Source: a phage
Length of the DNA: 64,000 nucleotides
Sequence record: PV636258.1
Reading direction: 5' to 3' (one strand)
The notes under the pieces were generated by a model, which had not been told where the DNA came from, searched no databases, and worked only from the letters and a program-made list of their open reading frames with translations. The position numbers and the translations under genes are program-made. This document shows positions 48,482-50,758 of the stretch, one piece after another. Each line of letters begins with the position of its first letter. The first letter of the stretch is position 1.

Positions 48482-49047
48482 TTCCGATCCCTATAAAATT
48501 TGACGAACGGTTGCCAACCTTCAAACGGATTGACAAATTCATAATCAACTTCCATCTTATCAATGAAAGCCTCAATGTCATCCTCTATGATACCACCGCG
48601 ATCCGCCTTTGAAATGCGGGTGATGGGACATTTAGTGCTCAGCGCCCATTCATATTCCTGAGGGGTGCGCAAATCACTCACGATATAATGAACGTGTGGG
48701 TTCTGTTCCACCAAAGGAAGTTGATATCGTTTAAAGAATGACAGAAACAGGTCTGGTTGTACGTAACGCAAGCCCGTATCGCTGCCGAGATGAAGCCAGA
48801 TCTGCCGTGGAGTTAATCCCTTGGGGTTATCAGGGTGAACATATGGCAAGTCCTTGATGTCGTCCTCTACTTCCTCTGGCAACCAAGGATAGATGTAATG
48901 AGCCACCCGACGCAACTCGTCTGAGAAAGATAAGCGCTGGATGTCCATATCACCCTGTAAATGGTGAAAGCTGATGAGGGACTCCAAACAGAAGTCCTTG
49001 CCGGAGCGCTTGCGCCCCGTAAAGAATTCCAGATTAGGGTATTTCAT
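48478..49047 (-). CDS. 1: deoxynucleoside monophosphate kinase (gp1-like)
   Basis: P-loop FFTGRKRSGKDF resembles T4 gp1 FLSGVKRSGKDT; ATG at 49047 overlaps upstream stop (ATGA). Confidence 0.7.
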   Translation of the reverse strand: MKYPNLEFFTGRKRSGKDFCLESLISFHHLQGDMDIQRLSFSDELRRVAHYIYPWLPEEVEDDIKDLPYVHPDNPKGLTPRQIWLHLGSDTGLRYVQPDLFLSFFKRYQLPLVEQNPHVHYIVSDLRTPQEYEWALSTKCPITRISKADRGGIIEDDIEAFIDKMEVDYEFVNPFEGWQPFVKFYRDRK

Positions 49048-50087
49048 TCCCCATACCCCCACATGTGTTTACGGTCAACGGGTGATTGTAACAACGCATT
49101 ACGAAGACCATCATCAGCAATCCGACGTTTATCAATTTTAGTATCATTAAGGCGACACCACAGACAATATGACATATCCATCATCAAACCTGTATCTGCG
49201 TTATATTCCTTCAAATGCTCTCTGATTTTACCAAATTCACTGCCAATGTCACAGTGATGAAGTACACCGAGGAACAGATTTTGGATGTTTTCTTGACATT
49301 TCACCTTTTCCGAAGAGAATTCCAACAAAGAATTGTACATACCAGTAGAAGTTCGGGTCTTGTTGGTTATGTTCCCGAGTTGCTTCCGACTGACTTCGTT
49401 GTTGTAATAGTGAAGGTTATTCGAGAACAGTTTATAATTCCCGACTTCCACGTTCAACACCTTCGCCAATACTTCCTGCAAAATGGAGAATTCAATGAAG
49501 TTGATTGAACTCATACCCCAGAGGACATCCTGACTTCGATTGATGACCGTGATGTTCAACCGCCCTTCTGTTATACTGAACAATAAAGCCAGATTACAGA
49601 TCATGTCTTTAGTCTTGGCTTCTCCTGTTTCACTATGCGCGGCCAAACTTTCATCTGAGTCCAGAGCTGGATCATAGATGGTGAGATACGCCTGACGGGT
49701 GTTGGGGTTATTGCGCAAACGGTTGATGACACTATTCAGCTGGCCATAGTTGTACAGGCGTGGTCCGTAAGCACCACGCCACGTTACGCCATCATCCGAG
49801 AAGTTGACCGCACGAGGGAGGACTCGGGAAAGGAAACGGATGTCATTGCGGCCTGACAGAACCCAGAATGTTTCACCAATCGCAGCAAGCGCAGATGAAT
49901 TACGACCTTCAACAGATAACCAACGATCTCGAGGGTCAGCCACCGTAATCGTCACGCCATCAATAAAACGAGTGCCGTCAGTGTTAATCTCTGCGTTGCC
50001 AGGATCTGACTCAATCCCGTGTTCACGGATAGCCAACACAGCTTTCTTCAGCATATCATTATTGTTTAAAGCAAAAATCTCCATCAA
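49044..50087 (-). CDS. thymidylate synthase-family enzyme, divergent (candidate deoxypyrimidylate hydroxymethylase)
   Basis: TS-fold motif series: GAYGPRLYNYGQ, NNPNTRQAYLTIYDP, Cys in DMICNLALLF, NRSQDV, SSINF (Asn at uracil-specifying position), SNNLHYY; 347 aa with C-terminal extension. Confidence 0.8.
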   Translation of the reverse strand: MMEIFALNNNDMLKKAVLAIREHGIESDPGNAEINTDGTRFIDGVTITVADPRDRWLSVEGRNSSALAAIGETFWVLSGRNDIRFLSRVLPRAVNFSDDGVTWRGAYGPRLYNYGQLNSVINRLRNNPNTRQAYLTIYDPALDSDESLAAHSETGEAKTKDMICNLALLFSITEGRLNITVINRSQDVLWGMSSINFIEFSILQEVLAKVLNVEVGNYKLFSNNLHYYNNEVSRKQLGNITNKTRTSTGMYNSLLEFSSEKVKCQENIQNLFLGVLHHCDIGSEFGKIREHLKEYNADTGLMMDMSYCLWCRLNDTKIDKRRIADDGLRNALLQSPVDRKHMWGYGE

Positions 50088-50758
50088 TCAATACTCCCAA
50101 AATCACGATTGAGAAACGCAAAAACAGCCTGCTCTACAGTCAGGCCATCGGACTTCATCATACCTGCAGCCACCGTAGGGAACAAGCCTTTATGCCGTTG
50201 ACGGTGATCATGAACTCTCTCCCACTTCTCGACCACCAGACTTTCATTGAAGTCTGCGCCACCGTTACGCGATTTAACACGGGCAATACAGGTTTCAAGA
50301 GGGGTATCCATAAAGAGGACGACCAATTCACGTGGTGGGCGTGTCAGGCGGGGAATCCAAGAACTCAATAATGTAGACGGAATGATGCCTTCGAAAATCA
50401 CATCATATTTCAGGTATTCTGGTTGGTCAGCAATAGACAACGCGAACAACATCTGCTCAGTATCCTTCAGAGAATCAACCCCTTTGGACTTAGACTTGTC
50501 ATATTTACCGACACAGACAATATTGTAAGATGGACAAACCGTGAGCATGATCTTACTGTTATGGGTTACGACATACGCCTGAGGATCATTCTCCGCCAAA
50601 TAAGAAGGCACAGTAGACTTACCACTACCATTGGAGCCTTTAATGTAATACAACTCTCCTCGTGCCGAATATTCCCCTTCTACAGCAGGTGGTTTGACAA
50701 ACAAATGAACAGGGCGCTTCAACAGCCCTTTGAGCGAATAAGACATGACATGCTCCAA
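50084..50758 (-). CDS. P-loop kinase (candidate 5-hydroxymethyl-pyrimidine DNA kinase)
   Basis: Walker A GSNGSGKST; stop overlaps start of TS-family gene; function inferred from coupling. Confidence 0.55.
   Translation of the reverse strand: MEHVMSYSLKGLLKRPVHLFVKPPAVEGEYSARGELYYIKGSNGSGKSTVPSYLAENDPQAYVVTHNSKIMLTVCPSYNIVCVGKYDKSKSKGVDSLKDTEQMLFALSIADQPEYLKYDVIFEGIIPSTLLSSWIPRLTRPPRELVVLFMDTPLETCIARVKSRNGGADFNESLVVEKWERVHDHRQRHKGLFPTVAAGMMKSDGLTVEQAVFAFLNRDFGSID

Follow-up and report, generated by a model that had tools for sequence, protein, structure and literature searches.

The 64,000-nucleotide stretch of sequence record PV636258.1 analysed here (the window) is very probably part of the genome of a Kuttervirus (Ackermannviridae, ViI-like Salmonella phage), in which an overlapping gene pair marks the entry to the published 5-NeOmdU pathway. 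The call of this pair as a dUMP hydroxymethylase and a 5-hmdU DNA kinase, the first two steps of thymidine hypermodification according to the first-pass annotation, is functionally correct; PF18748, 93-94% identity to the ViI proteins and the position of one member in a hydroxymethylase clade all agree with it. It is already published and not new. The discovery value is small, as pathway, enzymes and product had all been reported in 2018-2021 for ViI, the type phage of the genus (PMC5889632; PMC8989533), and the modification genes were described as conserved across Ackermannviridae in a 2024 family review (PMC11721090).

Positions 48400-51000 were 100% identical at the nucleotide level to Salmonella phage vB_SenA_SM5 and matched 271 Ackermannviridae-type records. 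The closest relative was Kuttervirus PM10, with 98.5% identity to positions 1-25000. The pair and the features around it are as follows:

50765..50793, minus strand: terminator-like hairpin (13-bp stem and T-run), just upstream of the kinase gene
50084..50746, minus strand: predicted 5-hmdU DNA kinase (220 aa; ATG 50746; PF18748; ortholog of ViI gp67)
49044..50084, minus strand: putative TS-superfamily dUMP 5-hydroxymethylase (dUMP hydroxymethyltransferase; 346 aa; ortholog of ViI Vi01_060c)
48478..49047, minus strand: dNMP kinase (phrog_139 deoxynucleoside monophosphate kinase, E=1.6e-48; start from the ViI annotation and the sequence)
47936..48481, minus strand: all-alpha (dimeric dUTPase/MazG-like) NTP pyrophosphohydrolase (PF08761 dUTPase_2, E=5.5e-9; phrog_173, E=6.8e-42)
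47406..47936, minus strand: ACT_phage domain protein of unassigned function (PF24021, E=4.3e-87), within the same overlapped run as the kinase and TS-fold genes

Both members of the pair are real genes, as minus-strand ORFs with matches at E=3e-112 (Pfam) and E=9e-183 (PHROG), which exclude chance. The sizes first given, 347 and 224 aa, hold for the ORFs as listed, which extend to upstream TTG codons (TTG 50758 for the kinase), but not for translation from the likely starts, which gives 346 and 220 aa. ATG 50084 for the TS-fold protein and ATG 50746 for the kinase are likely the true starts and agree with the ViI annotation; GGAG lies six nt 5' of the latter. The two genes are translationally coupled; the overlap described between them amounts to one base, shared by the kinase stop TGA (50086-50084) and the TS-fold ATG (50084-50082), and the TS-fold stop overlaps the start of the next gene as ATGA (49047-49044). 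From the kinase gene through the gp41-like helicase the genes all overlap or abut, in keeping with the single operon first proposed. The hairpin is a probable boundary of this transcription unit, and a sigma-70 promoter scan of the operon was uninformative, its 18 hits being near the 14.0±3.6 expected from shuffles. The distant Vibrio phage 1.255.O keeps the order kinase, hydroxymethylase, dNMP kinase, pyrophosphatase.

The TS-fold protein matches Pfam PF00303 in its core only (E=1.9e-15) and phrog_3676 at E=9e-183, and is 93% identical to ViI Vi01_060c, whose gene adjoins gp67. The thymidylate synthase motif series noted earlier is present: residues E71, Y106, R130, C163, R183, S184, D186, N195, H225 and Y227 are kept, corresponding in order to E. 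coli ThyA E58, Y94, R126, C146, R166, S167, D169, N177, H207 and Y209. Cys163 thus occupies the nucleophile position and Asn195, in the motif SSINF, the uracil-specifying position. With E. coli ThyA and T4-type td the protein has the fold and the covalent-catalysis residues in common at 22-24% identity.

This full residue set for covalent catalysis and methylene transfer would also suit an ordinary thymidylate synthase making phage dTMP, with 5-hmdU arising by another route. The PF00303 match and the name 'thymidylate synthase' or thyA in most matching records point the same way, as does the share of canonical T, about 60% of ViI thymidines (PMC5889632). We nevertheless regard an ordinary synthase as very unlikely. 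The divergence from housekeeping ThyA seen in the first pass is marked: against the NCBIfam ThyA equivalogs the protein scored 35-56 bits, far below the cut-offs of 108-405, and failed all of them, the best score being 55.8 bits against a cut-off of 174.55. In tblastn searches, SPO1 gp29, an annotated dUMP hydroxymethylase, aligned with 35% identity (E=5e-27) and T4-type td with about 23% (E≈1e-5). A neighbour-joining tree grouped the protein with its homologs from SPO1, M6 and Vibrio 1.255.O in one clade (bootstrap 0.995-1.0), apart from ThyA/td and from T4 gp42, with an identical outcome for capped distances and p-distances. The best PDB match was likewise the CMP hydroxymethylase MilA and not ThyA, and a profile of the hydroxymethylase clade matched MilA at E=4e-34 and ThyA at E=5e-19.

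Residue changes also set the protein apart from ThyA. All five clade members have Asn where ThyA has H147, an invariant SDDG replaces the ThyA W80/W83 segment in the hydroxymethylase clade, and the protein is without the ThyA C-terminal tail. A C-terminal extension is present, as claimed; the conserved H-x-Y motif lies 122 residues from the C-terminus, a distance of 58 residues for E. coli ThyA and of 31 for T4 gp42. The extension (positions beyond 228 of the clade profile) had no match in the PDB. A single-sequence AlphaFold2 model was unusable (mean pLDDT 39.6, pTM 0.37), with residues 218-346 all below pLDDT 50.

Context argues in the same direction. No TET/JBP-type oxygenase was found among the window ORFs scanned, a subset of all ORFs, and only one TS-family locus occurs per Kuttervirus record among the records listed. 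Genes for 5-HMUDK are known to co-associate with dUMP hydroxymethyltransferase (Fig. 2 of PMC5889632), and both hypermodified and canonical T arise from 5-hmdU in DNA (PMC8989533). Clade membership, residue pattern, genomic context and the need of the pathway for 5-hmdU DNA together suggest that the TS homolog is a dUMP hydroxymethylase. Indirectly, the missing W80/W83 segment and C-terminal tail, along with the context, favor 5-hmdUMP (hydration) over dTMP (hydride transfer) as its product. The canonical T of the virion (~60%) leaves formal room for the phage making some dTMP or drawing on host dTTP.

The kinase matches Pfam PF18748 (HMUDK_HMUD1) over profile positions 1-196 of 196 (E=3.1e-112; 373 bits, cut-off 27). 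The P-loop GSNGSGKST (Walker A) reported for it was found and is conserved in ViI gp67 (YP_004327432), with which the protein is 94% identical over 220 aa. ViI gp67 and gp243 convert 5-hmdU in DNA to 5-PmdU in vitro (PMC8989533), and by analogy with its ortholog the present kinase would phosphorylate 5-hmdU in DNA. In a sequence search of the PDB nothing better than E=0.2 (a guanylate kinase P-loop) was obtained, so no solved relative was found.

Database labels tell another story, in which the P-loop protein acts at the nucleotide level (thymidylate/hmdUMP kinase) or is the small subunit of the terminase, rather than being a kinase of DNA bases. It matches phrog_800 'terminase small subunit' and phrog_761 'thymidylate kinase', records name it terminase small subunit, baseplate hub or thymidylate kinase, and the RefSeq label is likewise terminase. 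This reading is hardly credible beside a full-length PF18748 match and near identity to a protein that transfers phosphate to 5-hmdU within DNA (PMC8989533); moreover, ViI has a separate small terminase annotated beside its large terminase, and a dNMP kinase is already encoded separately, adjoining the pair. The discrepant names look like annotation errors copied from record to record. Public annotation is poor for both proteins, the DNA-base kinase being filed under the three names above and the hydroxymethylase under 'thymidylate synthase', and a sequence-only reading therefore beat most database records on function.

Taking the pair as hydroxymethylase and DNA-base kinase, further genes of the pathway were located elsewhere in the window:

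2084..5239, plus strand: family B DNA polymerase (PF03104 and PF00136; ViI polA annotation)
5577..6419, plus strand: NT5C-like 5'-deoxynucleotidase (PF06941 NT5C, E=8.7e-8)
6735..7640, plus strand: second 5-hmdU DNA kinase, clade HMUD2 (PF18747 HMUD2, E=1.8e-149; ortholog of ViI gp243)
8182..9423, plus strand: amino acid:DNA transferase, aGPT-Pplase clade 2 (PF18724 ADDT, E=1.9e-57; ortholog of ViI gp247)
32590..33111, plus strand: dCMP deaminase, dUMP supplier (PF00383, E=1.3e-17; ViI ortholog annotated dCMP deaminase)

The earlier statement that no later pathway enzymes were identified in the window does not hold, given the second kinase and the transferase. The former is 86% identical to ViI gp243 (YP_004327565). 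The latter is 87% identical to ViI gp247 (YP_004327568), which was active as a serine:DNA transferase when purified (PMC8989533). Its assignment rests on the Pfam ADDT match and this identity; a MAFFT alignment with M6 gp51 (26% identity, heavily gapped) was too divergent to assign the catalytic Cys/Glu. Of the full enzyme set, the window encodes the hydroxymethylase, the two kinases and the aGPT-Pplase2, and the PLP decarboxylase was observed only in PM10, where an ortholog 91% identical to ViI gp226 ends about 1.45 kb before the point matching window position 1. Genes outside the window (the PLP decarboxylase and a gp160 paralog) are thus predicted from close relatives only. At 3156 nt the polymerase ORF is longer than the annotated ViI ortholog (2997 nt), so translation probably begins at an internal codon.

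Nor is the chemistry past hydroxymethylation open and possibly new, as had been suggested. The product has been determined as 5-NeOmdU by LC-MS/NMR in ViI, CBA120, CBA6 and 1.255.O, and the post-replicative steps have been rebuilt in vitro (PMC5889632, PMC8989533). 5-NeOmdU is 5-(2-aminoethoxy)methyluridine and makes up about 40% of thymidines in ViI; DNA of Vibrio phage 1.255.O carries the same 301-Da nucleoside (PMC5889632). The activities of the ViI kinase, transferase and decarboxylase and the product structure were shown experimentally (PMC5889632, PMC8989533). Since the proteins are 86-94% identical, we infer that these activities carry over to the present phage and, by the same analogy, that its DNA contains 5-NeOmdU.

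In the proposed pathway, dCMP deaminase would supply dUMP before replication. The TS-fold enzyme would then transfer the methylene of methylene-THF to C5 of dUMP through the Cys163 thiolate, and the methylene would be hydrated rather than reduced, yielding 5-hmdUMP. The adjoining dNMP kinase, a candidate to act on 5-hmdUMP, and host NDP kinase would raise it to 5-hmdUTP, while the NTP pyrophosphatase and the nucleotidase would hold down dTTP and dUTP. For the pyrophosphatase (47936..48481), a role as dUTPase/dTTPase clearing both from the pool may be proposed from the hmU-phage scheme in PMC8989533, and 5577..6419 is a candidate dTMPase of the pre-replicative pathway. The phage polymerase would build 5-hmdU into DNA. 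After replication, the P-loop kinase (50084..50746) and its paralog (6735..7640) would phosphorylate the hydroxymethyl group of 5-hmdU to 5-PmdU, the aGPT-Pplase2 (8182..9423) would let the serine side-chain oxygen displace the phosphate to give O-SerT, and the PLP decarboxylase, its gene just beyond the window, would remove CO2 to leave 5-(2-aminoethoxy)methyl-dU at about 40% of T positions. The rest of the 5-hmdU would become thymine.

The likeness to ViI is closest. Its pathway set comprises the dU hydroxymethyltransferase Vi01_060c, the 5-HMUDKs gp67 and gp243, the serine:DNA transferase gp247 and the PLP decarboxylase gp226 (PMC5889632, PMC8989533). The two phages belong to the same genus and share gene order and overlaps, with identities of 93% (TS), 94% (kinase), 86% (second kinase) and 87% (transferase), and the flanks are identical in kind (dNMP kinase, pyrophosphatase, UvsX, gp41). 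They differ at strain level only: the transferase diverges over its last ~40 residues and the second kinase over a patch of ~20. A remote possibility is that the diverged transferase (8182..9423) attaches a group other than serine.

That the TS-fold protein is instead a dCMP (cytosine) hydroxymethylase like T4 gp42, with cytosine as the modified base, has practically no chance of being correct: its gene slot is syntenic with that of gene 42 in T4, close to gp41 and uvsX, and MilA acts on cytosine nucleotides, but Asn195 stands at the ThyA N177 position where T4 gp42 (Asp179) and MilA carry Asp, the protein is only 20% identical to T4 gp42 and in a separate clade, and the window encodes a dCMP deaminase. 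In ViI DNA, dC is normal and T is modified (PMC5889632). The uracil-directed system described here resembles T4 in that a TS-fold hydroxymethylase stands beside a DNA-level modifier of the hydroxymethyl group (beta-glucosyltransferase in T4) in a gp41-uvsX neighbourhood. It differs from T4 in the base, uracil (Asn) and not cytosine (Asp), and in using phosphorylation and amino-acid transfer, not glucosylation.

SPO1 gp29 falls in the same clade as the present TS-fold protein, is 38% identical over a 200-column core, and carries the same CN, SDDG and Asn signatures. Both proteins also have a long non-TS extension at the C-terminus, but the two extensions align poorly. In contrast, DNA modification in SPO1 ends at 5-hmdU, and a 5-HMUDK annotation is absent from the 6.6 kb around gp29. 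The 5-NedU cluster of Pseudomonas phage M6 (gp51 transferase, gp52 PLP, gp53 rSAM, gp54 kinase, gp58 TS homolog) also uses a TS-family hydroxymethylase, 5-HMUDK, aGPT-Pplase2 and PLP decarboxylase in series, its kinase and TS homolog being 30% and 31% identical to the window proteins. M6 differs in employing glycine and a radical-SAM isomerase for a C-C linked product (PMC8989533), and its genes form one cluster, whereas those of the present phage lie in at least three genome places.

Therapy and biocontrol are potential uses of Kuttervirus phages, whose 5-NeOmdU DNA is resistant to many restriction enzymes (PMC11721090, PMC6449724).

Some steps of the ViI type are unexplained, namely the conversion of ~60% of 5-hmdU/5-PmdU to T, the retention of two non-orthologous DNA-base kinases and the determinant of the sequence context. 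We think it unlikely that they sit in uncharacterised genes of the two clusters. The ACT_phage gene (47406..47936), a DUF7254 gene (6394..6735) and the ~120-residue C-terminal extension of the hydroxymethylase are candidates, as are ORFs of 67 and 116 aa between the second kinase and the transferase. When 16 window proteins from both clusters were compared by tblastn with the M6, SPO1 and Vibrio 1.255.O loci, no uncharacterised accessory genes were shared and the known enzymes alone were in common. Among these three loci, a 319-aa upstream protein was common to the Vibrio Ackermannviridae phage only.

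The modification system in the window is the already known ViI-type pathway to 5-(2-aminoethoxy)methyl-dU (5-NeOmdU), in a phage closely related to the type phage. The first-pass annotation had not identified the later pathway enzymes and had considered the chemistry open and possibly new. Two of these enzymes, a second kinase and a transferase, are present in the window, and the ViI-type end product has been published, with 5-NeOmdU at ~40% of T positions and thymine at the rest (PMC5889632, PMC8989533). The genes concerned are as follows.

5577..6419, plus strand, NT5C-like nucleotidase (profile match)
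6735..7640, plus strand, predicted second 5-hmdU DNA kinase (PF18747 ‘HMUD2, 5-hmdU DNA kinase 2’, E=1.8e-149)
8182..9423, plus strand, predicted amino acid:DNA transferase (PF18724 ‘amino acid:DNA transferase’, E=1.9e-57)
32590..33111, plus strand, dCMP deaminase (profile match)
Plus strand, family B polymerase (profile match)
47406-47936, minus strand, ACT-like phage protein, 176 aa (PF24021 ‘Phage ACT-like domain’, E=4e-87, full length)
47936..48481, minus strand, all-alpha NTP pyrophosphohydrolase (Pfam/PHROG scans)
48478..49047, minus strand, dNMP kinase (Pfam/PHROG scans)
49044..50084, minus strand, TS-fold protein, predicted dUMP hydroxymethylase (clade placement, identity to ViI Vi01_060c)
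50084..50746, minus strand, predicted 5-hmdU DNA kinase (PF18748, identity to ViI gp67)

The TS homolog would convert dUMP and methylene-THF to 5-hmdUMP, which would be carried on to 5-hmdUTP and incorporated into DNA. Both kinases would then phosphorylate 5-hmdU in DNA to 5-PmdU, the transferase would yield O-serinylthymidine, and a decarboxylase would produce 5-NeOmdU at ~40% of T positions, with leftover 5-hmdU converted to thymine before packaging. Other authors demonstrated the post-replicative steps with ViI proteins that share 86-94% identity with their counterparts in the window (PMC8989533); the hydroxymethylase and pool-control steps are inferred.

The later-pathway genes lie on the plus strand ~40 kb from the TS-fold/kinase pair, and the products of the second kinase and transferase genes are 86% and 87% identical to ViI gp243 and gp247, respectively. 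Purified gp247 attaches serine to 5-PmdU DNA, giving O-serinylthymidine, which the PLP enzyme gp226 decarboxylates to 5-NeOmdU (PMC8989533). In PM10, the closest relative, the gp226 ortholog (91% identical to ViI gp226) ends ~1.45 kb short of the point that corresponds to window base 1; the paralogous gp160 (ViI 87,432-88,655) is well beyond the window. The NT5C-like gene and a DUF7254 gene (6394..6735, plus strand), both overlapping adjoining genes, directly precede the second kinase gene, which two small plus-strand ORFs (7643..7846, whose product resembles a membrane protein, and 7848..8198) part from the transferase gene.

The kinase at 50084..50746 is covered over the whole profile by PF18748 ‘HMUDK_HMUD1, 5-hmdU DNA kinase’ (E=3.1e-112) and is 94% identical to ViI gp67 (YP_004327432), listed as a 5-hmdU DNA kinase by Lee et al. 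2021 (PMC8989533). On 5-hmdU DNA, gp67 and gp243 gave the same 418-u phosphorylated nucleotide as Pseudomonas phage M6 gp54, which transferred labelled phosphate to DNA (PMC8989533). The match and the assayed ortholog both argue against a nucleotide-level kinase or a small terminase, even though PHROG (phrog_800) and RefSeq name the family ‘terminase small subunit’ and other public records name 5-hmdU DNA kinases ‘baseplate hub’, ‘thymidylate kinase’ or ‘guanylate kinase’. Since ViI has a separate small terminase gene annotated beside the large one, the terminase, baseplate and thymidylate kinase labels look like annotation errors. Such mislabelling is wide in public phage records, touches orthologs of both kinases, and seems to spread via PHROG-based re-annotation. 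A PDB search detected no solved relative of the kinase by sequence.

The TS-fold protein is 93% identical to ViI Vi01_060c, which adjoins gp67, and 5-hmdU DNA kinase genes co-associate with a TS-superfamily dUMP hydroxymethyltransferase (Fig. 2 of Lee et al. 2018, PMC5889632). By tblastn against phages, it matches Bacillus phage SPO1 gp29, annotated as a dUMP hydroxymethylase, at 35% identity (E=5e-27) and M6-like and Vibrio ViI-like homologs at E=1e-28 to 6e-39, against ~23% (E≈1e-5) for T4-type td. In an eight-sequence neighbor-joining alignment, it clustered with ViI, Vibrio 1.255.O, M6 gp58 and SPO1 gp29 in 99.5-100% of bootstrap replicates, with E. coli ThyA, JS98 td and T4 gp42 outside the group. 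Its top PDB match was the CMP hydroxymethylase MilA (E=2.5e-17 single sequence, 4e-34 clade profile), against 3e-7 and 5.5e-19 for ThyA. Several independent tests of the sequence thus place it with hydroxymethylases rather than ThyA.

The residues for covalent catalysis are all retained (E71, Y106, R130, C163, R183, S184, D186, H225 and Y227), and Asn195 corresponds to N177 of ThyA, the residue that specifies uracil; MilA has Asp there. This Asn, the 20% identity to T4 gp42 and the normal dC in ViI DNA all disfavour a dCMP hydroxymethylase. An ordinary ThyA is likewise disfavoured by the clade placement, by scores of 35-56 bits on all six NCBIfam thymidylate-synthase equivalog models (cut-offs 108-405), and by missing ThyA-specific segments: in all five clade members, the H147 position is Asn and invariant SDDG replaces the W80/W83 segment. 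In TS, W80 (L. casei W82) and the C-terminus, as it closes, protect the exocyclic methylene intermediate so that hydride transfer can take place; their loss in the predicted dUMP hydroxymethylase would fit hydration to a hydroxymethyl group. The C-terminal extension noted earlier is present and is a clade feature common to SPO1 gp29, as all five members have 122-160 residues past the H-x-Y motif versus 58 in ThyA. A clade-profile search detected no PDB relative of the extension, and a single-sequence AlphaFold model of the protein was unusable (pLDDT 39.6). The original pairing of a candidate dUMP hydroxymethylase with a 5-hmdU DNA kinase was right.

The overlap of the two minus-strand genes also held. 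The ORF listing gave 224 aa at 50084..50758 and 347 aa at 49044..50087, from upstream TTG starts produced by the listing rule. Sequence reading and the ViI annotation point to ATG 50746, with GGAG six nt 5′ (220 aa), and ATG 50084 (346 aa) as the likely starts, so that the kinase TGA (50086-50084) and the TS ATG share one base. The TS stop overlaps the next ATG in ATGA (49047-49044), and all eight genes from the kinase to a gp41-like helicase (44598..46028) overlap or abut. Directly 5′ of the kinase gene is a hairpin whose 13-bp stem is perfect and which leads into a T-run, TTTTGTTT (50793..50765, minus strand), between it and a 319-aa gene (50819..51778); TATAAT forms the palindrome centre, and the plus strand also has a weaker terminator score.

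The dCMP deaminase, dNMP kinase, all-alpha NTP pyrophosphohydrolase, NT5C-like nucleotidase and family B polymerase of the window make up the pre-replicative set expected of an hmU-type phage, with pool-control roles inferred; several NTP pyrophosphatases may be linked to dNTP pool control. For 22229-22807 (plus strand), the ViI annotation calls the ortholog a second ‘MazG-like pyrophosphatase’, but the window product had no Pfam match at E≤0.01; a third ViI MazG-like gene adjoins gp160, outside the window. The ACT-like gene forms part of the overlapping nucleotide-metabolism operon, with the pyrophosphatase gene on one side and UvsX on the other. In the M6 and SPO1 loci examined, tblastn detected neither the ACT-like and DUF7254 genes nor the small ORFs; these uncharacterised genes, embedded in the two clusters, are obvious candidates for unexplained parts of the pathway, such as the conversion of leftover 5-hmdU to T. 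A 220-aa ORF (29967-30629, plus strand) resembles QueC/PP-loop ATPases weakly and only near its N-terminus (residues 33-64, E=3.4e-5), and the ViI annotation labels the ortholog ‘QueC-like queuosine biosynthesis’; neither that annotation nor the Pfam/PHROG scans gave any other 7-deazaguanine pathway gene in the window.

The window is collinear with ViI (NC_015296, ~143,045-157,061, then 1-52,000); bases 1-25000 are 98.5% identical to Kuttervirus PM10, and 48400-51000 are 100% identical to Salmonella phage vB_SenA_SM5. The latter region matches 271 records, nearly all Salmonella, Klebsiella, Escherichia or Dickeya phages of ~155-160 kb. Salmonella phage 38 (NC_029042 117809-121000), a close relative, has ~590 bp more in this operon region, an insertion missing from the window, and the matched stretch bears the annotation of an HNH endonuclease. 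According to a 2024 review (PMC11721090), Ackermannviridae as a whole conserve the modification genes, and the kinase-hydroxymethylase-dNMP kinase-pyrophosphatase order is kept in the distant Vibrio phage 1.255.O, whose DNA holds the same 301-Da nucleoside as ViI (PMC5889632).

The order in 44598-50746 (gp41-like helicase, small ORF, UvsX, then TS-fold hydroxymethylase and DNA-level hydroxymethyl modifier) parallels 41, 40, uvsX, (segA), beta-gt, 42 in T4 (613-6220 of the compared sequence), with a base-modification module at the equivalent place in both lineages.
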